Below are positions 623 to 18,521 of a stretch of 64,000 bases of DNA, piece after piece. The notes under the pieces were generated by a model. That model ran no database searches. It had not been told where the DNA came from and saw only the letters and a list, made by a program, of their open reading frames with translations. The position numbers and the translations under genes are program-made. This DNA comes from Gemmatimonadota bacterium (GTDB taxonomy: Bacteria > Gemmatimonadota > Gemmatimonadetes > Palauibacterales > Palauibacteraceae), in assembly GCA_039585235.1 (NCBI GenBank), contig JBDGWG010000001.1, forward strand, positions 1,022 to 65,021, in the 5' to 3' direction. How positions within the stretch are numbered: the first letter of the stretch is position 1; every line of letters starts with the position of its first letter.

Positions 623-839
623 GGCGCGCTCGTTTGTCTGGAGAGTGCCCCCGCCTCAGGGGCTCAGTTTGTAGCGCGCAACATCGATGCCAGTGTCGGA
701 TTCCCTAACGGATCGCGGCAAATGGCCTTATGCGGGGAAGGTCGGCCACCGCGGCGGTGGGACACATTGAACCGGTAGCTTCCTCGTCGTGGGACAGTCC
801 GTCTCGGCGAAATCGGCCGGTATCCGCCCTACGCACCCC

Positions 840-1937
840 CTACTGGATCGGATTCGCCGTGTATCCCATCACGGTCAGGATGATGATGTAGGCGATCATC
901 GCCAGAGCGATCACGGTCATCAGTCGACTGGCTTCTCCGGGGGCTCTCCTCCTGTCCAGGAAAGGCACGAGCAACAGGAACAGTCCTGCGAGAGCAAAGG
1001 CCATCACGCCCAACATCTCGCCTTCGAGTCCGAGGATGTGCGAAGGAAGCAGCTTGAGCGTGTGGAACATGTACATGAAGTACCACTCGGGCTTGATCCC
1101 GATCGGCGCCGGCGCGAAGGGGTCGGCCTTCTCCCCCAGGTGCGCGGGGAAGAACGCCGCGAGCGCGCCGAGGACCGCCAGGGCGACCAGCCAACCGACG
1201 GCGTCCCGCATGAGGAAACTGGGGACGAACTTCATGGCGCCGCGTTTCGATCCATCCCTCTCGACGTCCGGCGGCACGCTCATGCCGTGTCGTTGGACCA
1301 GGAAGAGGTGCAGCCCGACGAACAGAATGATAACGGCCGGGAGGAGTGCCACGTGGATAGCGTAGAATCGGGTCAGGGTCGCGCCGGTGACGTCCGTGCC
1401 TCCACGTGCCAGGTCCCGCACGAAGCTACCGATCAACGGGACCACTCCCACGATCTCCGTACCCACCTTGGTCGCGAAGTATGCGAGTTCGTTCCACGGA
1501 AGGAGGTAACCCGTGAATCCGAAGGCGAGAGTGAGCACGAACAGGATCACCCCGGTGATCCACGTCAGGTCTCTGGGAGCCCGGTACGCTTTCAGAAGAA
1601 ACACGCTGAACATGTGGATGAGCACGGTGAACACCATCAGGTTCGCCGCCCACGCGTGAATCGACCGGATCAGCCACCCGAACTGTACTTCGGCCATGAG
1701 GAACTGAACGGACTCGTAGGCCTCCTCGGCACTGGGTCTGTAGTAGAAGAGAAGAAGGACGCCCGTGCTCAACTGGATCAGGAAGAGGAAGAGGGTCATG
1801 CCTCCCAGGTAGTACCAGATCGTGTGCCGGTGCAGCGGCACATCCTTCTTTCGGGCCATTTCCGACAGGGGCGCGAGCCCGATACGATCGTCGAGCCAGT
1901 TTCCGAGCTTCTCGTACCAGCGGCTCTTCCCGGTCAT
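840..1937 (-). CDS. petB: Cytochrome b (bc1/b6f-type, full-length ~8 TM)
   Basis: 365 aa with multiple TM helices, conserved His pairs ([19 protein letters not shown]; [16 protein letters not shown]) and the PEWY motif (KPEWYF) typical of cytochrome b. Its start overlaps the stop of the upstream Rieske gene at 1937. Confidence 0.9.
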
Positions 1938-2389
1938 CAGGTCCTCTTGCTCACGACGATCTCGTCACCCCGGACATTGACGTCGAATGCGTCGAGCGGC
2001 CGCGGAGGAGGACCCTGAATGTTGCGTCCCGTCAGATCGAAATGGCCGTTGTGGCACGCGCACCAGATGTGCGAGATGTCGTCACGGAACTGCACGGTGC
2101 AGTCCAGGTGGGTGCACACGGCGGAGAACGCGCGCAACTCACCGGACTCGGTGCGCACCAGGATGCCGGGCTTGTTGCCGAAGCGGAACGCCTTCGCCGA
2201 GTTGAGACCGATCTCGTCCGGGCCGAACGGGAGAGCGACGCTCGAGGCGGACGACTCTCCCGCCTCGGGCGGGATGAGGTAGCGCGTCACGGGATACAGC
2301 ATGGCCACCGCGAAACTCCCGGCGCTGGTTCCCAGCAGCCAGTTCACGAAGGCCCGGCGCGACGACTTTGGCGAATCCGTCCCGGCCAT
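1937..2389 (-). CDS. petA: Rieske [2Fe-2S] iron-sulfur protein with Tat signal
   Basis: Canonical box I CTHLDC and box II CACHNGH. N-terminus [20 protein letters not shown] is a twin-arginine signal/TM anchor. The upstream 144 aa of the listed ORF is R/G-rich low complexity, so the start is taken at the internal ATG, giving about 150 aa. Confidence 0.85.
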
Positions 2390-2421
2390 GCGATTTCTCC
2401 CGTCTGACTCAGGCTCGCGGC

Positions 2422-3675
2422 TCACGTCGGTCGCTCGATTTCCCGGATCTTGAGCACCAGGCCTACGATCAGTGCTCCGATTATGATCACCGACACCGCG
2501 AGGCCCATACGGCGAATCTGAAGATCCCGGAGAGCCTCGTGCCCGCTGGCCAGGGCCTCCCCCGATATCTCCATTCCCGGCTCCACTGCCTCCCGCACGG
2601 CCTCCACGTCGAAGGCGTGGATCGCCGCCCTCGATTTCACCAGCGCGCTCTGCCCGTCGTTGAGGCTGACCAGTGCCTCGCTCACTTCCATGCCCGAATC
2701 CTCGGCATGGAGCAACACGGCGCGAGCCGTGTCGAGTCCCACCCTCAAGCCATCGATCAGGTTGCGCATCTCGAGTGCCACCGTGCCCCCGGCATCCGCC
2801 TCGCGGTGGCACTTCGAGCACACGGAGGCCTCCCCGACGCCCAGCATCTCGTCTCCCGCCGGCTCCACGTCATGGTTCTGGTGGCAAACGGCGCAGCCGG
2901 GCACCCCCAGCATGGTGAAGGTCTCCGAGTGGTGGCTCTCCTCGAAGTAGTCGGCCATTACGACGTGACACTGCCCGCACACGTTGCCGACCCAGGAAAC
3001 CCCGGGCGGCGCCGCGCCGTGATTCCCGTGGCAGTCGTTGCACGTGGGCGCGGACGTGTCACCCCCCTCACTCATCGTCTCCCAGTGGACGCTGCGTCGG
3101 TATTCCGCGCCCTGGTCCGTCGGGATGCCGTAGGGCTCCATGTGAGCCGGGTCCGAGTGACAGCCCTCGCACGTGTCCGCCACGTTGAGCGGGTGGACCG
3201 CGGAACGGGGGTCCGAGGCCGGACGGATGCCGTGCGCCCCGTGGCAGCTGGCGCACGTGGCGACGGCCGTATCGGCCGCGCCGAGCAGTCGCTGCCCGTG
3301 AACGGATGTGACGTACTCCGCCACCTGGTCGACCCGGAGCGCCGGGTCGTATTGCCGCATGAAACCGGCATTCGAGTGACAGCGGCCGCAAACATCCGGT
3401 ACCTGTTCGGGCGAGGGCCGGCCGATATAGCCCTTCGCCAAGTCCATGGCGGCCGGACCCTGGACGGTGGGGTCACCACCGTGGCAAGCCGCACACCCGA
3501 ATCCCGCCTCCGCGTGCACGTCTTCAGCGAAGGCCGCTGCGGGCTCGCCCAGTCGGCCGGAGAGCATCTCGTGACACGAAATGCAACTGTCCGTTCCCTC
3601 CTGGGCTGCCGAGTGATCCGGCGAGGCCAGAATCGCCACCATCACCAAGGCGATCGCGCCGCTGCGTAGGTTCAT
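2422..3675 (-). CDS. Nonaheme c-type cytochrome with signal peptide and C-terminal TM anchor
   Basis: Nine CXXCH motifs (CISCH, CAACH, CGRCH, CASCH, CEGCH, CNDCH, CGQCH, CAVCH, CSKCH). N-terminal signal AILASPDHSAAQ and C-terminal helix GLAVSVIIIGALIVGLVL. Sits directly upstream of the Rieske/cytochrome b genes, in the position of cytochrome c1. Confidence 0.85.
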   Translation of the reverse strand: MNLRSGAIALVMVAILASPDHSAAQEGTDSCISCHEMLSGRLGEPAAAFAEDVHAEAGFGCAACHGGDPTVQGPAAMDLAKGYIGRPSPEQVPDVCGRCHSNAGFMRQYDPALRVDQVAEYVTSVHGQRLLGAADTAVATCASCHGAHGIRPASDPRSAVHPLNVADTCEGCHSDPAHMEPYGIPTDQGAEYRRSVHWETMSEGGDTSAPTCNDCHGNHGAAPPGVSWVGNVCGQCHVVMADYFEESHHSETFTMLGVPGCAVCHQNHDVEPAGDEMLGVGEASVCSKCHREADAGGTVALEMRNLIDGLRVGLDTARAVLLHAEDSGMEVSEALVSLNDGQSALVKSRAAIHAFDVEAVREAVEPGMEISGEALASGHEALRDLQIRRMGLAVSVIIIGALIVGLVLKIREIERPT

Positions 3676-4889
3676 GGAGCGCTCGCTTGGAAGAAAGCCA
3701 TGAGATCTCCTATCTCACGACCGGTGAACGAAGGCCATTCAGCGCCAGATCTCTCTTCAGCCTCGAACAGGGCGAGGTGGTTCCACAGGGCGGCCGTAAT
3801 GGACGACGGATGATCCAGGCCCGGGATCGACGTCAGTTCGCCCGGGCCGTGGCAGTCCGTGCAACCCTTGCTGTCCATCAGGGTCCGGCCCCTGCTCGCT
3901 CGACCGCCGGCTGAGAAATAGTCCACGGAATACAGATAGGCGACGATGTTGGCGAAGTCCTGCGCCTCCAGGCGGGGGAACTCCAGGTCTCTCGCCCGCA
4001 GGGCCCCCACCATGGCCGGCGCCTTGTTCCACATCAGGGCCACGAATTCGACCAGGCTTGTGCCCCGGCTCAACCCCGCCAGATCGCGCGCGACACGTCC
4101 TCCCGCACCGGGGTCCCCATGGCACTCGGCGCATCTCTTATCCTCGACCACCCGCACCCCCGCGTCGGCATCACCGGGAAGGACGTAGAGGTTCTCGCCC
4201 GGGGTCTCACCGGTCGTGGATCTGAGAAAGGCGATCAGGTCAGTCAGGTCGTGACTGCTCATCACGGGTCGTGAGATGCCTCTGACCTCCGCTGCTTCGA
4301 TCATCGCCGGACCGTGGTTCCACATGGCGGCAGCGATCTCGATCGGCACGCCCCGCGCGCCGACGTGATCCAGAACAGGCCCCACGACTCCACCGACGCC
4401 TCGGACCTGGTGACACAGGATGCAGTTCATCTCGGTGAAGCGACGCTTTCCTCGTTCCGGATCCCCCGGAGTGTCGAAATACCCCAGCGTGTAGAGGTAC
4501 GCGAACAGATCGCCGGCCTCGCGCTCACTCAGGTGGGGTCTCTCGATTCCGAGCTCCGCCATGTGCCGGTTCATGTCCGGCAGGTGGTTCCACAGGGCCG
4601 CGGTGAGTTCCTGGAAGGTCCGGGGGGAGGCGATCGTCCGCAGGTCGGGCCCCAGAGACTGGCCGCTGCCGCTGACCGAGTGGCAGCGGATGCACCCCTT
4701 CTCCCCGAACACTTCGGCACCGGCCACGGCGTTCTGAGTAGGCGCGGGCAGGTCCTGGGCCACCAGAAAGCGCGCGCCCGGCACGGAGCCGGCCGCGAGG
4801 GCCAGAACGACATGCAACAATCGCCATGAGGATCGCGTTGCGCTGTGCACTGTGTCCTGTCTGCGACGATTGTGAGCGTTGCAGGCCAA
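3672..4889 (-). CDS. Four-domain class I cytochrome c (4 x monoheme domains)
   Basis: Four ~95-aa repeats, each with one CXXCH (CIRCH, CILCH, CAECH, CTDCH) followed by a conserved (M/L)WNH/K..P motif, plus an N-terminal signal. Stop/start overlaps the downstream gene by 4 nt. Confidence 0.8.
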   Translation of the reverse strand: MACNAHNRRRQDTVHSATRSSWRLLHVVLALAAGSVPGARFLVAQDLPAPTQNAVAGAEVFGEKGCIRCHSVSGSGQSLGPDLRTIASPRTFQELTAALWNHLPDMNRHMAELGIERPHLSEREAGDLFAYLYTLGYFDTPGDPERGKRRFTEMNCILCHQVRGVGGVVGPVLDHVGARGVPIEIAAAMWNHGPAMIEAAEVRGISRPVMSSHDLTDLIAFLRSTTGETPGENLYVLPGDADAGVRVVEDKRCAECHGDPGAGGRVARDLAGLSRGTSLVEFVALMWNKAPAMVGALRARDLEFPRLEAQDFANIVAYLYSVDYFSAGGRASRGRTLMDSKGCTDCHGPGELTSIPGLDHPSSITAALWNHLALFEAEERSGAEWPSFTGREIGDLMAFFQASAP

Positions 4890-4984
4890 GGGCGACTCTC
4901 AGGCCCGCCCCACGCGCCAACGCGGCGCGGCGGAGCCCCTGCCTATATCAGCGGCCTTCCCCTGCCTCGAAAGGGAGAGCGCGA

Positions 4985-5932
4985 TCAGTATCCGGTGTGG
5001 CAGATAGCGCACGACTGAGTGCTGCGGTCGGCGGCCCGCTCGGGATCGAAGTCCGGTCCGTGCGGATTCACGCGCCAGCCGGCCTTGGCCGAGTGACAGG
5101 CCAGACACTCGGTCTGCTGGTGGCAGGTAGTACAACTCTCCATGCCCTGCCGCGCCGCCACACCGTGCTGTTGAAGCCAGTTCGCTACGCCGTCGTGGTA
5201 CCCCCCGTTCTGGCGCCCGTTCTGCGCGACGCCCTGCGTGGAGTGGCAATCACGGCAGAAGACCTCCCGCGAGTGGCATTCGGCGCACTCCATCGGAGCG
5301 GCCCACGATTCCGCGCTGTGCCGCGTGACGAAGTTCGCCGGATGGTATTGAAAGTCAGAGTTCTTCGGTCCATCGTGACAGTCGACGCAGAACGTCTCCT
5401 TGTGGCATTGCGTGCAATTCGGGAGTCCCGCCGCTGCCGCGGTCGCGTGCTGCGTCTTGAAGTCGGGCGTATGTCCGGGCCCCGGATCGTAGTGACAGGT
5501 CTCGCACGGGTTGATTCCGACCTCGAAGTGGTCGGTCGCGCCGTTACCGTGACAGGCAAGGCATGTGTCACCCGAGGCTGCCTGGACGGCCATATCGCTT
5601 TCCGCCTCAGGGACGCCGTGACAGGTCTGGCACCCGAGCTTGGGGTGCGTGGCATGCTCGAACTTCAGGCCGCTTTCCTGTGGAGTGTATCCCTCCCAGT
5701 CCACCTCGACGACCATCTGACCGTTGTGACAGCCGGCGCACAGCGCCGGGTCCGCCGACACGTTCTGTGCCGCGTCTCCAGAGTAGATGCCCGCGTGGCA
5801 GCTCTCGCACCCGGCAGCTCCAAGCACCGCGTGCTTCTCGTGCGGAAACTCGAACGCTAAATGGGAGGCCGCGAGCAGCGCTCCGGCGCCGACCGTGAGA
5901 ACGAGGGCGCTCAGATAAGCGAGCCGCCTCAT
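4985..5932 (-). CDS. Dodecaheme periplasmic c-type cytochrome (MtrA/OmaB-like heme density)
   Basis: Twelve CXXCH in 315 aa (~26 aa per heme), with a signal peptide (MRRLAYLSALVLTVGAGALLAAS) and no lipobox. Its ATG overlaps the stop of the upstream beta-barrel gene at 5929-5932 (ATGA-type overlap). Confidence 0.85.
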   Translation of the reverse strand: MRRLAYLSALVLTVGAGALLAASHLAFEFPHEKHAVLGAAGCESCHAGIYSGDAAQNVSADPALCAGCHNGQMVVEVDWEGYTPQESGLKFEHATHPKLGCQTCHGVPEAESDMAVQAASGDTCLACHGNGATDHFEVGINPCETCHYDPGPGHTPDFKTQHATAAAAGLPNCTQCHKETFCVDCHDGPKNSDFQYHPANFVTRHSAESWAAPMECAECHSREVFCRDCHSTQGVAQNGRQNGGYHDGVANWLQQHGVAARQGMESCTTCHQQTECLACHSAKAGWRVNPHGPDFDPERAADRSTQSCAICHTGY

Positions 5933-7383
5933 CGGGTACCTCCAGTGTTGAAGCGCCAGCGCAGGCCGACCGTGGCGCGTCCTTCGCTCCAGGTGTCGGC
6001 AAGCGGCCGGTTCTTGTCTTCGATGCGGTAGAAGCCGAGGCTAGCGTCCAGCGTGAGATTCGCCTTGGCGATGTCATAAGCGCCCTCGACCGCGCCGCCC
6101 GTCACATAGCGCTCACCCTCGCGGAACTCGTACAGGGTCTCGGTCGAGGTTCCCCGAAGCGCCACATAGGAGGCGCCGGTCGGTCCGAGATAGCGCCCGA
6201 AGATCAGGTCGCCGCCGTATCGCGAGCCTCCGAATCCTTCTTCGGCCCTGTAGCGCGCGTCCACGTACCACTTGTCCGGGCTCCAGTAGACGCGACCGAA
6301 CCCACGCCAGCCGTCCTTCTTGACGGTCGTGTTGGCTGGACCCGCATTCGTGTCCTCGTACTCGCGGTACGCTCCGCCCGCTTCCACGAGGAGGGGCAGG
6401 TTTCTCGAAGTCCATGTCCCTGAAAGGCGCGCCTCGTTGAACCCGATGGGTGAGAATGCGCTCCAGATGGTCCAGTAATCGAAGAACGGAGTGTAATGAC
6501 GGCCCTGGGCGGCGAACCGGATTCCGAGGACCTGAGGAGTCGTGATTCGAAGCCGCGCGTCATTGATGTTGTCGAACGCGAAGTCGTAGCTCGCGGCGCC
6601 GTCGAACGCCCAGCCACCGACGAGCGCCCGCAGATCGACTGCGGCTCTCTCCGTATACAGGGCCAGGCGGTCCGTGCGAAGTTCCCTCTGGTAGGTCGCT
6701 GATCCCGAAAACACTTTTCCGCCGCGGAAGCCGAGCTCTCCTCCGAACAGCAGGCCGCGCCGGTCGGTGGCCAGGAGGTCCGACTCCGTGTACAGGCTGC
6801 CGTTGCGGGGAGCGTTAACGCCGCGGGCCAGGCTCCAACCGCCATATGCGTCAACCCACAACCAGCCGAGCCCGCGCCAGATGATCGACGCGCCGTCGAA
6901 GTTGTAGTAGCCGAGGCCTGAGGCCCGGTACATCCGTCCGGCTTTCACCTGGTAGGCTGCCCGATTGAAGCTCAGGTAGCCGGTCAGCAGGTCGAATTCC
7001 TGGTCCGTGCGTGGCCACAGCTCGTCGCTCCCGAAGCGCGTGCGCATCTGTCCGTGGAATGACAGGCCCTGCACCCCTGTCCAGCCGGCGAATCGCAGGT
7101 CCTGCGTGAACGGCATGATGTCCTGGCGCTGGCCTTTGTTCTCGTACCAGCGGCAGAAGTCGCCTTCGACGCACGATACTACCGTCCCGTCCGCGAGCTG
7201 GCGCTGGAGACCCGATCCAGAGACGTCTCCCTCGGGAACCGAATCCTGCTCGAACGGCTGGAGCTGCATCCAGCCCCAGTTGAGTCTGACGTCGCCGCGC
7301 ACGCCCTGGGCCTGGGCCTCTGACGGCAGCCACACCACGGCGCACGCGACTAACAAGAAGAACGGCCGGCGATGGACAGTCAT
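5929..7383 (-). CDS. Outer-membrane beta-barrel protein (putative porin partner of multiheme cytochrome)
   Basis: 484 aa with a signal peptide (FFLLVACAVVWLPSEAQAQG). Composition is Gly/Tyr/Trp/Arg-rich with alternating amphipathic strand patterns (YRASGLGYYNFDGASIIWRGLGWLWVDAYGGW) and no hydrophobic helices. Translationally coupled to the dodecaheme cytochrome. Confidence 0.6.
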   Translation of the reverse strand: MTVHRRPFFLLVACAVVWLPSEAQAQGVRGDVRLNWGWMQLQPFEQDSVPEGDVSGSGLQRQLADGTVVSCVEGDFCRWYENKGQRQDIMPFTQDLRFAGWTGVQGLSFHGQMRTRFGSDELWPRTDQEFDLLTGYLSFNRAAYQVKAGRMYRASGLGYYNFDGASIIWRGLGWLWVDAYGGWSLARGVNAPRNGSLYTESDLLATDRRGLLFGGELGFRGGKVFSGSATYQRELRTDRLALYTERAAVDLRALVGGWAFDGAASYDFAFDNINDARLRITTPQVLGIRFAAQGRHYTPFFDYWTIWSAFSPIGFNEARLSGTWTSRNLPLLVEAGGAYREYEDTNAGPANTTVKKDGWRGFGRVYWSPDKWYVDARYRAEEGFGGSRYGGDLIFGRYLGPTGASYVALRGTSTETLYEFREGERYVTGGAVEGAYDIAKANLTLDASLGFYRIEDKNRPLADTWSEGRATVGLRWRFNTGGTR

Positions 7384-7530
7384 GGTCCTGCTCCGACGCG
7401 CTTGAGGTTACCTGTCACGGAGCTTCCTGGACGGCACGATAAACATGGGTGGCCGGGCGAGTCGGATCAAGCCCGCCCCGAGGGTTCCCCGCAGACAGGC
7501 CCGGCCCTTTCGGCCGAGCCTGCCCGGTTC

Positions 7531-10425
7531 CTAGCGGTAGCCGATTAACGCCGAGTAGACGATGTGGAGAACCAGGAATATTCCGATCCCGAGCATCGTG
7601 AACCCCACGACCCCGAAGATCAACTCCACTCGGCGTGGGTACGGTGGCACGAGGCGCTCTTCGAACTCTCCTGAAGCCACCATGCGTTCGTATTCCCTCG
7701 GCTTGTCCCTCTTCAGCTCCTCCACGGGTACGCGCCCCGTGAAGATCACCGGATCCATAGGGAACTTGTCGAGCCGGAAGTGAGTGTTGAAGAAGTGGAT
7801 CGTGAAGATGAACGCCACGGCCAGCAGCGCCTCATCGCTGTGGATGATGGTCGCCACATTCACCAGCCAACCCGGCAGGATGATCGTGAACAGCTCGGGG
7901 AACCAGAGCAGAAGGCCCGTGGAGCCAATCACGAACATCCCCCAGAACACGGCGAAGTAGTCGAACTTCTCCCAATAGGTGTATCGTCCGTAGTCCGGCC
8001 GGGGTCCCCAGCCCATGAACCACCTCACGGAGGCCCTAAACTCCCGGACGTCCGTCTTGTTGAACACGAGCGAGTCGCGCGACGTGATGAACTGGAGCCA
8101 CGTCTGACCGGCGCGGATTCTCTGCTTGCGCGCGTCGAACAGATGGACGAAGAACACCGAGAACAGCGCGATGGCGCCGATCCTGTGCCACACCCCCATG
8201 GCCTCGTAGCCGCCGAGCAGCCAGGCGAGCGTCTGGGCCCATCCCATATACGAGAACTTCAGGGCCATGCCCGTCAGGGCGAGGAGCATGAAGCTGACCA
8301 TCATGACGCCGTGCATCGATCTCTGGAACTTCGTGAAGCGTCGGTACTGCAGCGGTGGATCCGCTCCTTCCTCTGCCGCCACCGGCTCGTGTTTCCAGTC
8401 CTCCGGCGATCGCCACAGGCGCCACAGCCAGGCGAAGGTGTGAATACTGGCGAAGGTCAGAGTCCCGATCAGAAGGCTCGCCATGAACCAGAAGGTCCAG
8501 AACAGCCAGGGGTATTGCTCCGGGTCGTGGTGCGTTGCGTGCGTCAGATACCCCGTGAAACGCCGGTTCGCCCCCGGATGGCACTGAGCGCATGTCTCGA
8601 CGATGTTCCGGCGACTGAGGGTCGACGCCGGTTCCGTCGTGGGGAGGACGTTGTGCGTGCCGTGGCAATCGTAGCACTTGGCCGCGGTGGCCGCCCCGGC
8701 TCTGGACACCTTCCCGTGGTACGTATCGAAGAAGGTCTCTGATTCGTCCTCGTGGCACCTTCCACACTGGCTCATCATCAGCATGCGAAAGTCGTCGCGA
8801 TCCGTACGGCTGATCGTGTGCGACGTGTGGCAATCCTCGCACGTCGGGTAGTTGTGATCCCCCCCTCCGTTGGCGAAGTCGCCGTCTTCGGGCCAGTGCA
8901 CGCTTTCGCGGAACTGCTCTTCGATCCCGTGGTGACACTCGCCGCACGTCCCGGCGACGTTGTTCGGATTGATCGTAGAGGCGGCTTCCCCGGCGGGCAG
9001 CTCCGTGTGCGCCCCGTGACAGTCGGTGCAGGTCGCCGTGACTACGAGTCCGCTCTGGAGCAGTCCCTTGCCGTGGATGCTCATCTCGTAGCCCTGGACG
9101 ATATCGGCTCCGGTGCGCTCAATCCGCCGCGCCGCCGGTTCTCCCGCCATATGGCACCGGGAGCACAGGTCCGGAACGTTGCGCGGATAGATCGGCGAGG
9201 ATGGATTCGTTTGCTCGAACTCCGCGTGGCGCTCGTGGCAGTCGCCGCACGTGGGCGCGTCTGCGTCGCCTTGAGCCGCCAGCGTTCCGTGCATGCTGGA
9301 GCCGAATTCCTCTATCTGCACCGGGTGGCAGATGGCACAGTCAACCTCGGGCTCGATCGCCTCACACGGCCGTTCCTCGTAGATCGGTGTCACGTCGACG
9401 TGACACTGGGAGCACCCCGTCTCGGCATGCCCGGACTCGGCCCTCACCGACTGGTCTACGAAGAGGGATCGCTGCACCCCCCCCTCCTCTTCGACCACCA
9501 ACTCGGGGTCTCCGTGGCATTCCAGGCAGTCCTGTGTCGCGACCCCGGCGTCGTAGAACACGCGGCGGATCTTGTGCGGTTGATGGCAATCCACGCAGGG
9601 CGGGATTTTGTGCGGCTCTTCCTCCCACAGGCGTCCCTCGATGGCCTGCAGGTGAACCTCCTCGATCCTGCCGTGGCACTGCATGCACGTTCCGGCCACG
9701 TTCTCGGCGTGGATGCTGGATCGGTCGTCGGTGTGGGGAAGGATGAAGTGCGATGTGTGACAGGACGTGCAGACGGCCGTGACCGTCAGTCCCTGCTGGA
9801 ACAGTCCCGCCCCATGAATGGAAAGAGAGTAGTTCTCCAGGATCCGGTCCTGGGGGATGTCGAGTCTCTCCGACACCTCCGTACCTTCCTGGTGGCACTC
9901 GCCGCACAGGAAGGGGATGTTCATCACCGACGTGGACGAGGCCGGATCGCGGGAGGAGCGTACGTCATGTGTGCCGTGGCAGGTCGCACACGAGGGCGCG
10001 AGCGGGTCGCGCCGCGCGGCTGCCTGCCCGTGCAGGGACTGGTTGTGTTCAGCCCGCTGCGTGCCATGACACCGACCGCAGGTCGCGGGCGCCCGGTCTT
10101 CCGGGTGCGGGAACGTGAGGCCCTCGTGACAGTCCACACACCGCAGGCGGCCGTGGATCGAAGCGTCCAGCGTCTCACGTGTGACCACGAATCGGTCGCC
10201 GTCATCCCGGCTTTCCCAGAAAGCAGGGTTCGCGTGGCACATGAGGCAGTCGACTTCCTGTGCCTCCACTCGGTCCGGGAGGAGAGCGACCAGCCCGATC
10301 GCCAGGGCGATCCCGATCGTGCCTCGATATGCGGTCAGAGTCCGCAAGTCCATCGGATCTCCGGATATGTGGTATGTGTGAGTTCGTTTCCTTGGCCCGG
10401 ACACACCGCGACGCTCGACCGGCAA
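7531..10425 (-). CDS. Fusion protein: ~19-heme c-type cytochrome domain + C-terminal dihaem cytochrome b (HydC/FdnI-like) membrane domain
   Basis: About 19 CXXCH in the first ~630 aa. The C-terminal ~330 aa has 4-5 TM helices with conserved His (WHRIGAIALFSVFFVHLF; IIHSDEALLAVAFIFTIHFF), typical of membrane cytochrome b of the formate dehydrogenase/hydrogenase gamma family. The start may be the internal ATG at 10353 (MDLRTLTAYRGTIGIALAIGLVALL). Confidence 0.85.
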   Translation of the reverse strand: MPVERRGVSGPRKRTHTYHISGDPMDLRTLTAYRGTIGIALAIGLVALLPDRVEAQEVDCLMCHANPAFWESRDDGDRFVVTRETLDASIHGRLRCVDCHEGLTFPHPEDRAPATCGRCHGTQRAEHNQSLHGQAAARRDPLAPSCATCHGTHDVRSSRDPASSTSVMNIPFLCGECHQEGTEVSERLDIPQDRILENYSLSIHGAGLFQQGLTVTAVCTSCHTSHFILPHTDDRSSIHAENVAGTCMQCHGRIEEVHLQAIEGRLWEEEPHKIPPCVDCHQPHKIRRVFYDAGVATQDCLECHGDPELVVEEEGGVQRSLFVDQSVRAESGHAETGCSQCHVDVTPIYEERPCEAIEPEVDCAICHPVQIEEFGSSMHGTLAAQGDADAPTCGDCHERHAEFEQTNPSSPIYPRNVPDLCSRCHMAGEPAARRIERTGADIVQGYEMSIHGKGLLQSGLVVTATCTDCHGAHTELPAGEAASTINPNNVAGTCGECHHGIEEQFRESVHWPEDGDFANGGGDHNYPTCEDCHTSHTISRTDRDDFRMLMMSQCGRCHEDESETFFDTYHGKVSRAGAATAAKCYDCHGTHNVLPTTEPASTLSRRNIVETCAQCHPGANRRFTGYLTHATHHDPEQYPWLFWTFWFMASLLIGTLTFASIHTFAWLWRLWRSPEDWKHEPVAAEEGADPPLQYRRFTKFQRSMHGVMMVSFMLLALTGMALKFSYMGWAQTLAWLLGGYEAMGVWHRIGAIALFSVFFVHLFDARKQRIRAGQTWLQFITSRDSLVFNKTDVREFRASVRWFMGWGPRPDYGRYTYWEKFDYFAVFWGMFVIGSTGLLLWFPELFTIILPGWLVNVATIIHSDEALLAVAFIFTIHFFNTHFRLDKFPMDPVIFTGRVPVEELKRDKPREYERMVASGEFEERLVPPYPRRVELIFGVVGFTMLGIGIFLVLHIVYSALIGYR

Positions 10426-10462
10426 GTGCGTCCGCCTCCTTCACTGCAAGAAGCGGACACAA

Positions 10463-10502
10463 GTGTATCTTTCTATAAAATGTTGGTATGATAGCAAGTT
10501 AC
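10463..10502 (-). promoter_or_regulatory. AT-rich island in the 115-bp gap upstream of the 964-aa cytochrome gene; candidate promoter
   Basis: gtgtatctttctataaaatgttggtatgatagcaagttac is ~75% AT in an otherwise ~70% GC context. Contains TATGAT/TATAAA-like hexamers and lies in the only sizeable intergenic gap (10426-10540) inside the cytochrome array. Confidence 0.35.
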
Positions 10503-10540
10503 GACGGAGGACCCGGAGTCGAGTCCTCCGCCACGATGGG

Positions 10541-12520
10541 TCAAGATGTCACATGTTCGGTGGGTGCGTCCGCTTCCCCGGACTCGGTCGCCACTTTGTC
10601 TTCGTGCCCTGAAAGGCCGTTCTGCGCGTCATCACCGCCCGCGAGCTCCTCGTCATACCAGCGGCCGTGCACCGCCCTGGCCTCATGCTCGGGCATCTTC
10701 CCCGTCAGCCAGATCCAGCTCATCGGATAGACCTCGGGGTGGAACAGCACGAAGAAGAAGTGCCACACCACGATGGCCAGCGTGGCCAGCCAAGCCTCAT
10801 AGAAGTGGATGGTTTCAGAAATGGACACGATCCACGTGGGGAACAGCCCGGTGGCCCAGGAGGGGAACCACAGGACCACACCGGTGAGCGCCATGAGAAC
10901 CGTACCCCACACCAGCGCCCAGTACTCCGCCTTCTGGGTGTAATCGTACCGTCCGAATCGAGCCCGATGCGGGGAGCGCCACGTGTAGAAGCGCATGTTG
11001 TCGACGAATTCCTTCGCGTCCCTGACGTTAGGCGTCATCGCCTGGAACTCTTCCCTGCCGCGTTTCATGAACATGATGTACAGAACGTGGACGATCCCGA
11101 ATAAGATCAACCCGACGCCCAGCACGCGGTGCAGGGTCGATCGCACGGGTTCCGCCAGATAGGCGAGGCCCGTCACTCGCGCCCAGCCAGCTTCCGGGTA
11201 CCGGAGGGCGAATCCTGTGACGACCAGCAGGATGAAGGATGTGGCCAGCATGGCGTGCTGCGCGATCTGGATCCGGTCGAAGCGCAGGAAGCCTCGCTCG
11301 GCTCCATCCCGCCGCCGCTTCTCGACCATGTAGTAATTGAAAATGATCGCGTTGTGGATCGCCATTCCTCCGATGACGACCGCAATCAACGCGATATAGA
11401 TCGCGCGCACGATCCGCCGGCCCTTGTTCGTCGCGATCGAGGCTGCCCGATGGTCCCCTTCGTGACATTGCCGGCACGTGGCCACCACGTTGCCTTCCGC
11501 GACCGACGACTCCGGGTCGTCTGCCGGGAGCACGAAGTGGGTCGTGTGGCAGCTCACGCACGTGGCCGAGGTCTGACTGGCCCGCCGAGTCGCCCACCCG
11601 TGGTAGCTGTCGCTGTAGGAGAGGACAACCTCCTCCTGCAGACTGTACTTGGTGATGATCACGGGGTCGTTATGGCAATCGCCGCACAGCTGGGCAGCAA
11701 GATGCCCGGAGTGCGTACCGGCGTCGGGGTTGGCCGGATGCAGAATGAGGTGCTCGCCGTGACAGTCCGTGCACGTGGGGCTGTCGCTCACGCCCGCCGC
11801 CACCGCCCTGCCGTGGATCGAGCGGTCGTAGATCTCCGTGATGTTCCCGTGACACGCCCCGCACGTCGCCGACACGTTCCGCCGGTTGATCCTGGACTCG
11901 GGGTCTGAGTGACCCCTGAGATCGTGGACGCCATGACAGTCCGTGCAAGTGGCGGCCTCCGAGGGGCCGTTTCCATTCGCGGTCCCGTGCACGGAGCGGG
12001 CGTACTGCAGAGCCGGCGCCGGCAACTTCAGGTACTGATCGGTCAGCAGGCCACCCGTGCTGTGACACTCCGTGCACGTCTCGGCCACCCGCGCGTGGTA
12101 CGTGTGCGACTCCGGGTCGGTGCTCCGACGAATGTCGTGCGCCCCGTGGCAACCGGCACACGTCGGAGCCCGCGGGTTGCCGCGCTCCAGTGCGTACCCG
12201 TGCACGCTACCGGAATACTCTCGGCCTTCCCCGCCGTGGCACCCGCCGCAGCGAACCGGGGTGTACTCCTCGGGGTGGGGGTAGTTGAAGGCCTGGTGAC
12301 AGGTGATACAGGACATTCCGAAGCCGCCGTGCACCGAGCCGGCGAACTCTTCCTGCGTGACGACGAGGCGGGCGGAGTCTGCCCGTCCGGCGAAGTTGGC
12401 GGTATCTCCGTGGCAGGCGAGACAGAAACGGTTCTCCTGCGCGGAGAGACTGGTGGCGAATATGGCAACGCCAAGACCGGCCACCAGAATACGGGCTGGA
12501 TGGGGCCAATGGCTCAACAT
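10541..12520 (-). CDS. Fusion protein: 11-heme c-type cytochrome domain + C-terminal dihaem cytochrome b membrane domain (CbcL-like architecture)
   Basis: Signal peptide, eleven CXXCH in the N-terminal ~350 aa, then a ~300-aa polytopic domain with conserved His in TM helices (IAQHAMLATSFILLVVTGFAL; LHRVLGVGLILFGIVHVLYIMF; ETIHFYEAWLATLAIVVWHFFF). A paralogous architecture to 7531-10425. Confidence 0.85.
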   Translation of the reverse strand: MLSHWPHPARILVAGLGVAIFATSLSAQENRFCLACHGDTANFAGRADSARLVVTQEEFAGSVHGGFGMSCITCHQAFNYPHPEEYTPVRCGGCHGGEGREYSGSVHGYALERGNPRAPTCAGCHGAHDIRRSTDPESHTYHARVAETCTECHSTGGLLTDQYLKLPAPALQYARSVHGTANGNGPSEAATCTDCHGVHDLRGHSDPESRINRRNVSATCGACHGNITEIYDRSIHGRAVAAGVSDSPTCTDCHGEHLILHPANPDAGTHSGHLAAQLCGDCHNDPVIITKYSLQEEVVLSYSDSYHGWATRRASQTSATCVSCHTTHFVLPADDPESSVAEGNVVATCRQCHEGDHRAASIATNKGRRIVRAIYIALIAVVIGGMAIHNAIIFNYYMVEKRRRDGAERGFLRFDRIQIAQHAMLATSFILLVVTGFALRYPEAGWARVTGLAYLAEPVRSTLHRVLGVGLILFGIVHVLYIMFMKRGREEFQAMTPNVRDAKEFVDNMRFYTWRSPHRARFGRYDYTQKAEYWALVWGTVLMALTGVVLWFPSWATGLFPTWIVSISETIHFYEAWLATLAIVVWHFFFVLFHPEVYPMSWIWLTGKMPEHEARAVHGRWYDEELAGGDDAQNGLSGHEDKVATESGEADAPTEHVTS

Positions 12521-12735
12521 ATGGTGCCGCGTCCCTATTTGTGGTGGAGCGAGGGGGCTCCGGGCGGGAAACGCAGCACCATTCGTGCCGCGACGACGGC
12601 TCGCCGACCCGCTGCCTGGCGCGGAGATGCGAGCGAGGTGAAGTGCCTGCGTCAGAGCAAGTTACGGGAAGGCAGCCCCGAGTTTGGCAGGGCGGTCAGC
12701 GCAGGCCGCTCCGCCGGCTACGCCCAGAGGCCGGC

Positions 12736-14703
12736 CTATTGTCCCAGCGCCGGGACCTCATGGCACATCTCGCACGCTACCGGGGCGTTGTGCTCCACCC
12801 GGTCGGCATGGCACACCGTGCACACGTTGCGCGACCAGGCGGCCACGCCTTCGATTGCCTCACCGTGGCAGACGGCGCATCCCTGGTGAGCCCCGACGGG
12901 ATGGATCTGCAGGACGCCTCCCCGATGGCAGCTCAGGCACGTGGCTTCCGGCTGATGATGAGCGCCGTGACAGTTCTCGCACACATCAGCGCTCGGTGAG
13001 CCCGGGCTGTCGCCGTGGCACGTGGCGCACGCGAATCCGAGGGCCACGTGTGTCGGGTGAGGGAAATCTCCCGTGGCAGTGGTAATCGTGCCAGTCGGAG
13101 CGCGGGCGCCGCCCGCGTGGCACCGTTCGCACCCGATGGCTCCGCTGTGGTGACAGTCGGAGCACGCCGCCCGCGAGCCGAGAGCCATCCCGCCGTGCTC
13201 CTCCAGGCCCGTGTGACAGGCCGAGCACGGGAGGTTCGCCTCCTTCACATGCGGCTGATGCGAGAAGCGCGTACCCTGCCACACGCCTTCCTGGCGATCC
13301 ACGCCCAGGTGGCAGCCCAAACATGCGTTCTCCGCAACCGGTGTGCCGAGGCTCACCGTGGGCGGACGGTAGTCAAGACCGCCGCTTCGGGCGGCCCGAT
13401 CCACGTACTCCACGACCGCGCGCAGAAGCGCATCCGCATACCCTATGTTGTGTGCGCTCTGTCCCACCGAGACGAGTTCGACGTTGTCGGCCGCCAGGGC
13501 CAGCAAGCTGTCGGCCGTGGCGCGCTGCGCGAAAGAGCCGGTCCGGGGTGCCGAGGAGGCCGCTCGCACGATCGACGACACTCGCTTCAGCTTGCCGTCC
13601 ATCTCCGCCTGCCACGACGGCAGGATGTTGGCGTACTTGGTCCCGTGGCACGCCAGACAAGTAGCCTCCCCCGCCGCCTGGACCTGTTCGTGACCGGCGA
13701 TTTCACGTGGGAGGCCGTGGCAGCTCCCGCACGAGACACGGGCCTCGTACATGGCGCTCGGATCGTCCTCGGCGCCATGGCCTCCCGTGCCAGTGTACAG
13801 GTTGCGTTGCGCTGCGTGCGTACCCTGGTGGCAGGCCGTGCAGTCGAGCTCGAACGTGTCGGCGTGTGAGACCACCTCGTGCGCGATCGGCCGGTGACAC
13901 AGCTGACACTCCACGTTGTGCTCCCCGAGGTGCACCTCGTGCACAAGGGTCGCATCCGCGAACAGGGCGACCCTCTCCGGCTCGTTGTGACACCCGAAGC
14001 ACCGATCCTGCTCGGCCGCCCCGTCGCCCGACGTCACGCGGTCGTGACACGAGATGCACGATACCATGTCCCGCACGTACTGCGGATGATCGATCACGCC
14101 CGTCGCAGTGGTGATGAGCGGCGGTTCCACGTGGCAGCCCGTGCACCCGGCGATGGGCTCGCCTTCAGGGCGTCCCCGAAAGTGGCACAGAAAGCAGGTG
14201 CTCTTCGTGACCGCGACGTGATCTCCCTGCACGATCTGCGAGTGGCAGCTCGTGCACCGAAGCTGCTTGCCGCGCCGATGTGCAATCAGGTGATGCCGAT
14301 GGTCGAAGCGGACGCCGAGGAAAGTGAGCTCGCCCTCGATCTTGCGTGTCGAGTGGCACCCCGAACGCAGACACGCCGCATCCTCGATCTCGGCCCATGG
14401 CTTCGTCCCGTAGGTGCCCGTGACGTACTTCACGACCTGGTTGGCCGCCTGCATCTTTCCCATCGCCTCGGCCTTGATCCCGGGGGCGTAATGGCACTTG
14501 ATGCAGGGCACATCCTGGTGAGTGGAGGTCGTCCACGAATCGTAGTAAGGCTGCATGTTGTGGCAGTTCTTACAGAAACTGGGCCGCGCCGCGTACTCGA
14601 TGAACCCTACGGTCCCGAGCCCGGCCAACAGGATGAGGAGAATGATCCCCTGGACGACTACTCGAAGCAATCGCCTCCGCTTCTCGGGGTCGTGGCGGGT
14701 CAT
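12736..14703 (-). CDS. NapC/NirT/NrfH-family membrane quinol dehydrogenase module fused to a ~21-22-heme cytochrome c domain
   Basis: N-terminal TM (LLRVVVQGIILLILLAGLGTVGF) followed by the NrfH/NapC signature PSFCKNCHNMQPYYDSWTTSTHQDVPCIKCHY. The remaining ~580 aa carry ~19 more CXXCH plus one CX4CH (CLRSGCH). The internal ATG at 14703 is chosen as start (MTRHDPEKRRRLL) because it overlaps the TGA of the upstream gene as ATGA; the ORF track extends to 14799. Confidence 0.85.
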   Translation of the reverse strand: MTRHDPEKRRRLLRVVVQGIILLILLAGLGTVGFIEYAARPSFCKNCHNMQPYYDSWTTSTHQDVPCIKCHYAPGIKAEAMGKMQAANQVVKYVTGTYGTKPWAEIEDAACLRSGCHSTRKIEGELTFLGVRFDHRHHLIAHRRGKQLRCTSCHSQIVQGDHVAVTKSTCFLCHFRGRPEGEPIAGCTGCHVEPPLITTATGVIDHPQYVRDMVSCISCHDRVTSGDGAAEQDRCFGCHNEPERVALFADATLVHEVHLGEHNVECQLCHRPIAHEVVSHADTFELDCTACHQGTHAAQRNLYTGTGGHGAEDDPSAMYEARVSCGSCHGLPREIAGHEQVQAAGEATCLACHGTKYANILPSWQAEMDGKLKRVSSIVRAASSAPRTGSFAQRATADSLLALAADNVELVSVGQSAHNIGYADALLRAVVEYVDRAARSGGLDYRPPTVSLGTPVAENACLGCHLGVDRQEGVWQGTRFSHQPHVKEANLPCSACHTGLEEHGGMALGSRAACSDCHHSGAIGCERCHAGGARAPTGTITTATGDFPHPTHVALGFACATCHGDSPGSPSADVCENCHGAHHQPEATCLSCHRGGVLQIHPVGAHQGCAVCHGEAIEGVAAWSRNVCTVCHADRVEHNAPVACEMCHEVPALGQ

Positions 14704-16016
14704 CCTGCCACCCGGCTCGGATCCGAGCCCGGTTCGGTGCCCCGGAGACGCCACAGCCGGGAGCCGGCCAATACGATCGTGGCGAGCGCCAGGAACCACA
14801 CGGGGATGAGGAAGAGCTTGTGCTCCCAGCGCTCCTCGGCACTCACCTCGGCCTCCGCGACGATGTCACGCGAGATGGAGCCGACGACTCGCTCGAGGTC
14901 CTCGAGCCGCTCCAGATCCAGCGCGTGCTGCGCCGACGCCAGCTGCCGGTATTGAGTGAGGGCCGTGCGATAACGGAACCGCGTATCGCTGACCTCGTGC
15001 CCGGCCCGCACCAGCTCGTGGATCGCCTCCGCGGCCGCATCCATCTCCCGCTCGGCGCGCACGAGGATCTTCTCGATTTCCTCGCCCAGCACGGCGGGCG
15101 CGCTCGCCGGGGCGTGGCAGCCGGTGCACGTCGTGGCCACCAGATCCGGTGGGATTCGCTCCGTAAGGTGACTGCTGTGGCACGCCGTGCAGCCGAGAAG
15201 GACCCCCTCGGCCGTGGCCCTTCCGTGTGGCCCTTCATCGAGGGCCTTTCTCGTTCCGACGTGACACCGGCCGCACACGTTCGAGATCTCGCTCACATTC
15301 GGGGGCAGGGCCGCGTGAGACCCGTGGCACCCGATGCAGCTCGGCGCCGCGAAATTCAGATCCTCGAACAGGGCTGCGCCGTGCGCGCTCCGTCGGTGGC
15401 TGCGGACCTGATCCGTGGGGATGCCGTACGGTTCCATCAAGGCGTCGTCCTCGTGGCATACGGCGCACAAGGTCGGGATATTCAGAGGGTACGCACTGCT
15501 GCGAGCGTCGTCCGCTCGAAGCGTGGTGTGCGGATCGTGGCAGTCAGAGCACGTGGGGGCGTCCTCACTGCCTCGTTCCAGGAGGAGCATGCCATGTCGG
15601 CTGGTGCGCAGCTCGGCGATCTGGTCTGCGGGAAGACCGTACTGACGCATCGCGTCGGGATCAGCGTGACAGCTGGAGCACACCTCGACCGTAGCCAGCT
15701 TGCCCAGAGACCCGCGGAAGTCACCGCCGTGCGCCCCGGGAATCTCGAACGAGTCCGGGTCTCCTCCGTGACAGTCGTGGCACCGGACGTTTCTGTCGGA
15801 GTGCACTCCGAGCAGATACGCCCTCCTCTTGTCCGCGTGACAGATGAGGCAGCCGTACTGCGGGTCGATCCCGCCGGCTTCCTGCGGGACGGCCTCGCCA
15901 GAAACGACGTGCGCGCTGACGGACGCCTCTACCATGGGTGCGCGATCGAAGCCGGTAGCCGAAAAGATGCCTGCCATGACGAGGACAAAGCCGGCCTTCT
16001 TGAGCGTCGCGCTCAT
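14700..16016 (-). CDS. Nonaheme c-type cytochrome with C-terminal TM anchor (paralog of 2422-3675)
   Basis: Nine CXXCH (CLICH, CHDCH, CSSCH, CSDCH, CAVCH, CIGCH, CGRCH, CTACH, CTGCH). C-terminal helix LFLIPVWFLALATIVLAG. Blocks are collinear with the 417-aa nonaheme protein (e.g. EPYGIPTDQ conserved in both). Start overlaps the stop of the cytochrome b gene (16013-16016). Confidence 0.85.
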   Translation of the reverse strand: MSATLKKAGFVLVMAGIFSATGFDRAPMVEASVSAHVVSGEAVPQEAGGIDPQYGCLICHADKRRAYLLGVHSDRNVRCHDCHGGDPDSFEIPGAHGGDFRGSLGKLATVEVCSSCHADPDAMRQYGLPADQIAELRTSRHGMLLLERGSEDAPTCSDCHDPHTTLRADDARSSAYPLNIPTLCAVCHEDDALMEPYGIPTDQVRSHRRSAHGAALFEDLNFAAPSCIGCHGSHAALPPNVSEISNVCGRCHVGTRKALDEGPHGRATAEGVLLGCTACHSSHLTERIPPDLVATTCTGCHAPASAPAVLGEEIEKILVRAEREMDAAAEAIHELVRAGHEVSDTRFRYRTALTQYRQLASAQHALDLERLEDLERVVGSISRDIVAEAEVSAEERWEHKLFLIPVWFLALATIVLAGSRLWRLRGTEPGSDPSRVAG

Positions 16017-17278: not shown

Positions 17279-17287
17279 GTCCTTACC

Positions 17288-17740
17288 TCAGTCCCGCGTC
17301 ACGTATACGGCGCCGTCCCTCACGAAGACGTCGTAGCGCTGAAGCGGCTCGGTCGTAAGGCCCTCGACCGCCTGGCCGCGAAGGTTGTACAACATGTGCC
17401 CGCAAGGTGAGGTCACGCGCATGGCCGCGGCGTCCCACTCGAGTAGGCACCCGTCCACTGGAGATGCCCCCTGGAGCGCCGCAAAATTGCTCTCACCGCT
17501 CCGCACCACGAGGATGGCCTGCTCCCCCCAGCTTGCCATGCGGCTGCTGCCTACGGTGAAGTCCTCGGCGCGCGCCACCCGGACTGCTACCTCGCGCTGT
17601 GCTATGATCAAGTGCTCCGGGGGGACGGTGTAGATCGCCGCGATCGCCGCCGCGATCAGGAACACGACGCCGAGTACGGCATTCAACAAGAACGTGCCGA
17701 AGTCGCGCTTGCGACCCGGTTCCGAGTGCTCTGGAGACAT
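17288..17740 (-). CDS. Rieske-fold protein with degenerate [2Fe-2S] ligand boxes, TM-anchored
   Basis: 151 aa from the internal ATG at 17740 (MSPEHSEPGRKRDFGTFLLNAVLGVVFLIAAAIAAIY...). The C-terminal half aligns with the canonical Rieske at 1937-2389, but box I reads SPVDGC (canonical CTHLDC) and box II reads SPCGHM (canonical CACHNGH), so two or three of the four cluster ligands are missing. Sits immediately upstream of the cytochrome b gene, as petA does. Confidence 0.55.
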   Translation of the reverse strand: MSPEHSEPGRKRDFGTFLLNAVLGVVFLIAAAIAAIYTVPPEHLIIAQREVAVRVARAEDFTVGSSRMASWGEQAILVVRSGESNFAALQGASPVDGCLLEWDAAAMRVTSPCGHMLYNLRGQAVEGLTTEPLQRYDVFVRDGAVYVTRD

Positions 17741-17997
17741 TGGGCTCGCAGCCTCGATAGTTGATCGCCCCGGTCGGGAAGAATCAGCAGCTCCCCCGGG
17801 CGGCTCGTGCGGGCGCTGAAAAGCTACGGCCGGTGGGGACACGATGCCAGAACGTCGGTTGGCCTGTGGAACGCGTCCAAACTCGCGTGGGGGGACGCGG
17901 TGTCCTAATTTCAAAACCACTTCGGTCGAGCGCCGGGAGAGGCTTTGTGCGTTTTCGTGCGCGCCTGGCGTGATACCAATCGCAAGGAGAGCGTAGG

Positions 17998-18384: not shown

Positions 18385-18433
18385 CAACGGCAGGCAGGCT
18401 GTCGAAGAAGGCAAAGAAGCCCTTTCCTGAACG

Positions 18434-18472: not shown

Positions 18473-18521
18473 GTCTTCCTCGATCTGACGACCCGTGCTG
18501 CCGGGCCGCCTGCCTGTGAGC

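Follow-up and report, generated by a model that had tools for sequence, protein, structure and literature searches.

A pair of overlapping genes on the minus strand (5929–7383 and 4985–5932) of a 64,000-nucleotide stretch of DNA from a Gemmatimonadota bacterium of the order Palauibacterales (GenBank assembly GCA_039585235.1, contig JBDGWG010000001.1, positions 1,022–65,021; the whole stretch is hereafter called the window) probably encodes the outer-membrane core of a porin-cytochrome (Pcc) electron conduit. The larger gene encodes a predicted outer-membrane beta-barrel and the smaller one a putatively periplasmic 12-heme c-type cytochrome. A preliminary description made from the sequence alone had proposed a Pcc-type module, and this proposal is supported by the predicted barrel of about 24 strands, by the pairing of the two genes in all 83 loci compared, and by neighbouring genes of the CbcL type.

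Architecture of the gene pair

The elements of the pair are as follows.

5929–7383, minus strand: outer-membrane beta-barrel protein of 484 amino acid residues; Sec signal peptide, probably cleaved behind AQA near residue 25
4985–5932, minus strand: 12-heme c-type cytochrome of 315 amino acid residues; 12 CXXCH motifs, a signal peptide, and no lipobox
5929–5932, minus strand: ATGA stop/start overlap of the barrel and cytochrome genes; GGAGG lies 8 nucleotides upstream of the ATG

Both open reading frames and the ATGA overlap, in which TGA is the stop codon of the barrel gene and ATG is the start codon of the cytochrome gene, were verified as first described, and the N-terminus of the cytochrome agreed with the presence of a signal peptide and the absence of a lipobox. 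The 315-residue cytochrome contains exactly 12 CXXCH motifs, corresponding to 26 residues per heme, and when its residues were shuffled (n = 2000), such motifs numbered 0.13 on average and 2 at most. The 484-residue protein contains no CXXCH motif and is rich in Gly (13%) and aromatic residues (3.9% Trp, 5.2% Tyr, and 5.8% Phe).

The two genes had also been described as translationally coupled. The ATGA overlap is real, but the same overlap joins the tetra-c/9-heme genes (3672–3675) and the cytb2/9-heme genes (16013–16016), and probably the 9-heme/21-heme gene pair (14700–14703). Since other gene pairs of the operon are joined in this way, the overlap reflects close packing of genes in the operon and does not set barrel and cytochrome apart; the evidential weight for their link rests on conserved synteny. 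A scan for promoters and terminators around the pair yielded nothing above chance, which is compatible with a long operon.

Co-inheritance of the barrel and cytochrome genes

To compare gene contexts, we used 83 loci that contain sequence downstream of the barrel gene; their barrels show 36–90% identity, and almost all of the loci are from Gemmatimonadota. The same-strand gene following the barrel gene encoded a multiheme cytochrome of the family of the 4985–5932 product in 83 of the 83 loci, and the ATGA overlap was found in at least 34 of them. Reciprocally, two distant homologues of the cytochrome, both on contigs longer than 200 kb, were each preceded by a protein of 492–495 residues without a Pfam match. 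All other neighbours of the pair were reshuffled among the loci. The barrel and the cytochrome are therefore strictly co-inherited.

The gene upstream of the barrel gene varied, being a 19-heme CbcL-type fusion, the cytochrome b gene of a bc module, a divergent Rieske gene, or a 17-heme cytochrome gene with two N-terminal transmembrane helices; the 19-heme c/b fusion lay directly upstream in many loci. The gene for an 8-heme lipoprotein cytochrome was located 1–4 kb upstream of the barrel gene in roughly half of the loci. In distant Gemmatimonadota, including those of soil, the pair occurred in a stand-alone module of four genes, encoding, in order, the lipoprotein cytochrome, a 17-heme NapC/NirT-type membrane-anchored cytochrome, the barrel, and a 16-heme cytochrome. 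This module was found at the following positions.

834–7647 of locus L084: four-gene module, flanks unrelated
941–7428 of locus L085: four-gene module, flanks unrelated
Loci L068, L079, L056, and L061: four-gene module, flanks unrelated

Ccm genes lie just upstream of the modules of both L084 and L085, with CcmH beside that of L084, and a NiFe uptake hydrogenase is encoded downstream of the L084 module only. The four genes hold every role required for a path from the inner membrane to the cell surface.

Predicted fold of the barrel

The AlphaFold2 model of the 484-residue protein (mean predicted local distance difference test score (pLDDT), 84; predicted template modelling score, 0.74) consisted of a signal-peptide helix followed by beta strands only, in agreement with the initial description of a signal-peptide-bearing beta-barrel reading frame without helices. 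DSSP assigned 23 long strands and one bent strand at residues 76–89. The topology was deduced by the rules that both termini are periplasmic, that periplasmic turns are short, and that the number of strands is even, and the 23 long strands and the bent strand together thus amounted to a topology of 24 strands, in which the periplasmic turns would comprise 2–7 residues and the external loops 2–25 residues. A plug domain is absent from the model, and no segment is long enough to form one.

Foldseek gave the best template modelling scores (TM-scores, normalised to the query) of 0.45–0.48 to the 24-strand FimD usher, and scores of 0.36–0.41 to 18-strand porins and 0.41 to MtrB. The model aligned with MtrB and PhuR across 354–357 residues. 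These results suggest that the protein, though it has few residues, forms a barrel that is not narrow, and that its predicted number of about 24 strands would be enough to house a heme-wire cytochrome. It had been stated at the outset that a barrel of fewer than about 16 strands would be too narrow for this purpose, and the model gives about 24. It had also been stated that the small barrel differs from those of MtrAB and PioAB; this holds for its length in residues and not for its width, as about 24 strands compare with 26 in MtrB.

Known barrels of 22–26 strands are filled: those of TonB-dependent receptors and ushers by a plug, LptD by LptE, and MtrB by MtrA. Because the barrel encoded in the window is predicted to be wide and to lack a plug of its own, and the known wide barrels are filled, we infer that a partner protein fills it.

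Conserved parts of the barrel were located in an alignment of 41 homologues. The most conserved motif of the family, P-F-F-x-x-W-T-I-W-x-A-F-S-P at residues 299–312, contains seven invariant positions. It sits in the loop with the lowest confidence in the model (pLDDT of about 45), which is external on the deduced topology and, as judged from the model, may become ordered only against a partner. On the periplasmic side, an insertion of 25 residues between strands 2 and 3 (residues 51–75) carries invariant residues, and residues 48–79 include nine invariant positions, among them cysteines C71 and C77 at the end of the insertion. In a subset of shorter members (about 450–470 residues), the region before approximately residue 80–90 is not collinear in the alignment.

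Sequence family and distribution of the barrel

Searches of Pfam, NCBIfam, and PDB sequences with the 484-residue protein gave no match, and none of the 41 family members had a Pfam or NCBIfam match at E-values up to 1. A profile built from the 41 members did not find MtrB (6R2Q_B) among PDB sequences at E-values up to 10. We take PF11854 and an NCBIfam model to be the family models of MtrB/PioB.

An exhaustive profile search of 1.84 billion representative sequences yielded 428 clusters at E ≤ 1e-3, and every name retrieved for the relatives was 'hypothetical protein', including those of ten distant homologues looked up by cluster. When one genome per GTDB species was searched, 445 loci were found, the best 80 of which were nearly all from Gemmatimonadota, with two from Eisenbacteria. 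A few relatives carry titles of other phyla, such as Akkermansiaceae and Tepidiformaceae, and these are probably binning errors. The closest relatives, with 82–90% identity, are from marine-sediment Palauibacterales (PAUC43f), including 'Candidatus Benthicola marisminoris'. Locus L049 contains a second, divergent barrel paralogue (16329–17243; 33% identity), which is preceded by two further homologues of the lipoprotein cytochrome and a gene of the 17-heme type; some genomes would thus carry two conduits.

The partner cytochrome

In Pfam, the 12-heme cytochrome matched Cytochrome_C7 (E = 1e-16), Paired_CXXCH_1, and the MtrC/MtrF domain II/IV pentaheme model (E = 7e-11, residues 141–313); no recognisable catalytic domain was found in it, only heme-packing modules of the c7/c3 type. 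Among PDB sequences, its profile retrieved only generic heme-packing relatives, namely ActA from Alternative Complex III and Hmc with its 16 hemes (E of about 3e-9 for each) and c7 cytochromes. The match to MtrA (6R2Q_A) had an E-value of 7e-4 and covered short stretches, and the score against the DmsE/MtrA model TIGR03508 was 21.5 bits, compared to a cut-off of 192.2. AlphaFold2, run without hemes, gave a good model of the N-terminal half and a poor one of the C-terminal half (pLDDT below 50), and Foldseek returned only a non-significant ActA match with this poor model.

The number of hemes, 12 in 315 residues here and 16 in most relatives, is sufficient to span the membrane. MtrA crosses the outer membrane with 10 hemes, as seen in the Mtr structure (6R2Q). 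Most relatives of the partner cytochrome contain 16 hemes in 460–520 residues, and some contain 12 or 14. Compared to these, the clade to which the window belongs lacks about 150 central residues with two di-heme modules; 12 hemes are likewise present in a second, distant clade (37–40% identity), and there is an intermediate with 14 hemes. Sequence comparison thus indicates that the 12-heme cytochrome is a shortened derivative of a 16-heme ancestor, and the central di-heme modules appear to be dispensable, since 16-, 14-, and 12-heme forms all exist. The barrels of the two 12-heme clades share only 37–38% identity. In the length variants with 16, 14, and 12 hemes (L072, L075, L082, L083, and L073 compared to the window), the differences arise by loss of central paired-CXXCH modules. 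The C-terminal half, with six hemes, is the best conserved part, showing about 50–60% identity compared to about 30% in the N-terminal half.

The N-terminal hydrophobic stretch of the cytochrome is long (about 20 residues). It is accompanied by a conserved small-residue motif, GxGA (AGA at residues 16–18 here), which fits a signal-peptidase site, and distant homologues have canonical AQA or AQS sites directly before the first F-P-H-x-x-H heme-ligand motif. Given these sites in the distant homologues, the cytochrome was taken to be exported and soluble. Anchoring in the inner membrane in the manner of ActA, which the long hydrophobic helix and the ActA match might suggest, was judged unlikely in view of the signal-peptidase-type motifs, and it is likewise unlikely that the clade of the window has retained an anchor.

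Lipoprotein cytochrome and inner-membrane neighbours

The pair lies in an almost unbroken row of minus-strand genes (840–20006), and the nine open reading frames located between 2.4 and 20 kb of the window contain 97 CXXCH motifs together. The neighbours of the pair are as follows.

18522–20006, minus strand: 8-heme lipoprotein-type cytochrome; 8 CXXCH motifs, signal peptide ending in LAGGC
7531–10425, minus strand: 19-heme c domain with a C-terminal multi-helix cytochrome b of the FdnI/HydC type; likely true start at Met25, near 10353
10541–12520, minus strand: 11-heme c domain with cytochrome b, a second CbcL-type protein, assigned from its CXXCH count and Pfam/NCBIfam
12736–14799, minus strand: 21-heme cytochrome with an N-terminal membrane anchor of the NapC/NirT/NrfH type; likely start at Met33 (14703)
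17974–18384, plus strand: small 4-heme cytochrome of the c3/c7 type, 136 residues, 4 CXXCH motifs; divergent, between the second Rieske gene and the lipoprotein cytochrome gene
840–4889, minus strand: Rieske/cytochrome b module 1 and a 9-heme, C-terminally anchored cytochrome (840–3675), with a 4× mono-heme cytochrome c; context, not conduit core
14700–17920, minus strand: Rieske/cytochrome b module 2 and a second 9-heme, C-terminally anchored cytochrome; context, not conduit core

The 8-heme cytochrome was overlooked in the preliminary description, and it is the probable third component of the Pcc system. Under strict criteria, 24 of its 35 homologues were scored as having the lipobox cysteine. 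The only significant solved relative was 6I5B (E = 7e-11, several collinear segments), which is OcwA, the cell-surface terminal reductase of the Gram-positive electroactive bacterium Thermincola potens (PMC6703420). This relationship suggests that the lipoprotein would be the partner of the pair at the outer membrane or cell surface.

That 19- and 11-heme c/b fusions adjoin the pair was verified for both genes, and they belong to a quinol-linked family. Each has 4–5 hydrophobic segments in its C-terminal half. They matched Ni_hydr_CYTB (E = 1.8e-10 and 9e-20, respectively), and their matches to the FdnI/HydC models of NCBIfam were below the cut-off. Judged by their domain make-up, both appear to have the CbcL/MtrH/MtoC architecture. 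Fusions of this type contain 3–23 hemes, occur in 15 phyla, and are known from Fe(III) reducers as well as from Fe(II) oxidisers.

Each Rieske/cytochrome b module is followed by the gene of a 9-heme cytochrome whose only transmembrane helix is C-terminal, and both modules look like bc-type complexes in which the nonaheme protein replaces cytochrome c1. The domains of the 4× mono-heme cytochrome c are of the Cytochrom_C and cbb3 types. The two modules bracket the cluster and are kept in many related loci. The 136-residue 4-heme cytochrome is a possible periplasmic shuttle; a similar gene of 132 residues follows the partner cytochrome gene in the related locus L003.

Proposed electron path and alternative readings

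In the proposed conduit, the 484-residue protein would form a wide barrel of about 24 strands without a plug of its own, and the co-translated 12-heme cytochrome would be exported by Sec and matured by Ccm. Its conserved C-terminal six-heme half would lie in the lumen of the barrel, with the variable N-terminal half extending into the periplasm. Electrons of the quinol pool would enter through the 19- and 11-heme CbcL-type fusions, the 21-heme NapC/NrfH-type protein, and possibly both Rieske/cytochrome b modules. These inner-membrane multiheme proteins would hand electrons to the periplasm-facing hemes at the N-terminus of the 12-heme cytochrome, and the electrons would run along the heme chain across the outer membrane. 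At the surface, they would go probably to the OcwA-like 8-heme lipoprotein, or directly to the acceptor. The final acceptor would be insoluble or extracellular, for example, Fe(III) or Mn(IV) oxides, humics, or a partner cell. Outward flow was considered somewhat more likely than inward flow because of the NapC/NirT-type and CbcL-type partners, the OcwA-like reductase, and the one adjacent hydrogenase.

The same complex could instead run in reverse and take in electrons from Fe(II), reduced minerals, a cathode, or a partner cell, a reading nested within that of the conduit and differing from it in direction only. Electrons would then pass on to periplasmic c-type cytochromes and to terminal oxidases or reductases of N-oxides, and would also be driven uphill by way of the two Rieske/cytochrome b modules. 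These modules and the 4× mono-heme cytochrome c, all embedded in the cluster, suit this scheme. It is also in line with the occurrence of petB/petC beside porin-cytochrome genes in PCC4, a candidate Fe(II)-oxidiser cluster, and in the porin-cytochrome clusters of a Gemmatimonadota metagenome-assembled genome (MAG), with the presence of CbcL/MtoC homologues in Fe(II) oxidisers as well as in Fe(III) reducers, and with the description of members of the order as facultative aerobes with N2O reduction. On the other side, the minimal four-gene module lacks bc genes and contains a NapC/NirT-type cytochrome, which is usually a quinol dehydrogenase; one such module adjoins an uptake-type NiFe hydrogenase, which suits outward flow; and OcwA, the best solved relative of the lipoprotein, is a terminal reductase. 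None of these three points is decisive, and we regard reversed flow as having an appreciable, if low, probability.

It is improbable that the barrel serves as a plain diffusion or substrate channel that admits a soluble acceptor or donor, on which the cytochrome would act in the periplasm outside it. On the deduced topology, which comprises about 24 strands, has no loop longer than 25 residues, and lacks a constriction or plug domain, the barrel would be far wider than diffusion channels of 16–18 strands, and its best TM-scores were to translocation barrels of 24 strands. The cytochrome has no recognisable catalytic domain, and an absolute one-to-one linkage with a single cytochrome family over deep divergence is atypical of substrate porins. 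Very improbable is a dedicated exporter or assembly platform for the cytochrome or the lipoprotein cytochrome that is not itself part of the wire: surface lipoprotein cytochromes do require some export route, and the best TM-scores were to usher translocation pores, but the likeness to ushers is confined to barrel size, POTRA, plug, and periplasmic chaperone-binding domains are all lacking, and no Omp85, TpsB, or usher signature was found in Pfam or NCBIfam. The barrel's size, its lack of accessory domains, and its strict one-to-one linkage to the cytochrome fit the conduit better than a plain porin or an exporter.

Comparison with known porin-cytochrome systems

The Pcc/Ext systems of Geobacter sulfurreducens (OmbB-OmaB-OmcB; ExtABCD and ExtEFG) share three roles with the system described here, namely a barrel, a periplasmic multiheme cytochrome, and a lipoprotein cytochrome. 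This three-role layout was found in the present loci, and all three components co-occur in the four-gene module. Further similarities are that ExtA and ExtG are periplasmic dodecahemes, like the 12-heme cytochrome, and that CbcL-type inner-membrane partners are present in both. The pair had been set apart from known systems by its gene order; the order does differ from that of mtrAB, but barrel followed by cytochrome is also the order in which the Geobacter products OmbB, OmaB, and OmcB are listed. When compared by description only, the Geobacter barrels are predicted to have 18–21 transmembrane segments, compared to about 24 strands here. Unlike in Geobacter, most relatives of the cytochrome have 16 hemes, the lipoprotein partner is OcwA/c554-like and its gene is often apart from the pair, and Rieske/cytochrome b modules are present in the cluster.

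Two-gene clusters of Anaeromyxobacter and Kuenenia (2014 pcc survey), again compared by description, encode a porin and a single periplasmic cytochrome with 12 or 14 hemes, as does the pair. The authors of that survey proposed that such a large 12-/14-heme cytochrome is able to span the outer membrane without a separate outer-membrane cytochrome. These clusters differ in belonging to another phylum, and in the present loci a lipoprotein cytochrome usually accompanies the pair. The initial claim of a new Pcc-type module stands for the barrel family, but two-gene clusters of a porin and a 12-/14-heme cytochrome and the dodecahemes ExtA and ExtG had already been described.

MtrCAB, PioAB, and MtoAB follow the same logic, combining a heme-dense cytochrome of about 300 residues, a large barrel, and a surface lipoprotein cytochrome, and c/b fusions of the MtrH/MtoC type, similar to those found here, adjoin some mtr and mto clusters. 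However, the barrel has 484 residues and about 24 predicted strands, compared to 649 residues and 26 strands in the MtrB chain 6R2Q_B; the barrel gene comes first, whereas the cytochrome gene comes first in MtrAB, PioAB, and MtoAB; and the cytochrome has 12 or 16 hemes, compared to 10 in the MtrA type. With these differences in gene order, strand number, and heme number, and with both proteins failing the family models, the pair is not a member of the MtrAB family. Cyc2 has a heme motif fused N-terminally to its porin, and the 484-residue barrel contains no CXXCH motif.

PCC3 and PCC4 (He et al. 2017) combine a porin with large multiheme cytochromes, an inner-membrane protein of the b type, and, in certain cases only, bc1 genes, and were predicted from genome context, as was done here; they are mainly proteobacterial, and their five-helix inner-membrane protein is of a different type. 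A cave metagenome paper from 2026 listed, for a single Gemmatimonadota MAG (SAW209), porin-cytochrome clusters that include petBC. These clusters were catalogued only, in groups whose defining cytochromes are decaheme, undecaheme, or >20-heme, and the barrel family was not defined. The SAW209 cluster is probably of the same kind as the one described here. FeGenie matches to 'DFE_0461-0465' in marine Gemmatimonadota were considered as instances of this cluster and rejected, since DFE_0463 belongs to the NHL-repeat proteins and no porin-cytochrome conduit is apparent in D. ferrophilus.

Novelty and possible significance

Surveys of marine Gemmatimonadota genomes reported only rare MtrABC operons, Cyc2, and FeGenie 'DFE' matches, and the barrel was not mentioned. 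Within open-access papers and bioRxiv, the cluster was not mentioned in the Palauibacterales paper or in the global marine Gemmatimonadota survey, and an earlier mention elsewhere is possible; Gemmatimonadetes are not mentioned in the text of the 2014 pcc survey. New features of the system are the barrel family, which has no sequence kinship with MtrB/PioB, its near-restriction to one phylum, the putative ancestral wire of 16 hemes, which also occurs in naturally truncated forms, and the lipoprotein partner resembling OcwA. Most likely, the barrel represents this lineage's own form of the porin-cytochrome wires by which bacteria move respiratory electrons across the outer membrane.

Tentatively, the module may represent a phylum-wide, independently evolved form of extracellular electron transfer, with at least 445 loci among GTDB species representatives, nearly all of those listed being from Gemmatimonadota. 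If so, Gemmatimonadota, which are abundant in soils and coastal sediments and are not regarded as electroactive, would be major unrecognised players in Fe/Mn cycling or intercellular electron exchange in soils and marine sediments, and the four-gene module would offer the phylum a concrete route to metal respiration or electron uptake. In the extreme form of this idea, a lone 16-heme cytochrome would bridge the periplasm and the outer membrane, and the conduit would be bidirectional through the Rieske/cytochrome b modules.

The conduit would add another independent solution for wiring electrons across the outer membrane, and the natural variants with 12, 14, and 16 hemes would form a useful comparative series. 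A further porin-cytochrome solution would not surprise specialists; a conserved, unannotated module in hundreds of Gemmatimonadota species provides a testable handle on how this phylum might exchange electrons with its surroundings. Annotation pipelines miss the barrel because no Pfam or NCBIfam model covers it, and it could serve as a gene marker.

Genomic context of the window

The G+C content of the window is 63–69%. Housekeeping genes for LeuRS, GyrA, and UvrA in the window indicate a chromosomal context rather than a mobile element. Elsewhere in the window, genes for CcmF (47005–49035), a Kdo transferase (28299–29648), a heavy-metal P-type ATPase (54654–56990), and a cation-diffusion-facilitator efflux protein (20240–21292) were found. 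The presence of CcmF and the Kdo transferase indicates that maturation of c-type hemes is possible and that the organism has a genuine outer membrane with lipopolysaccharide.

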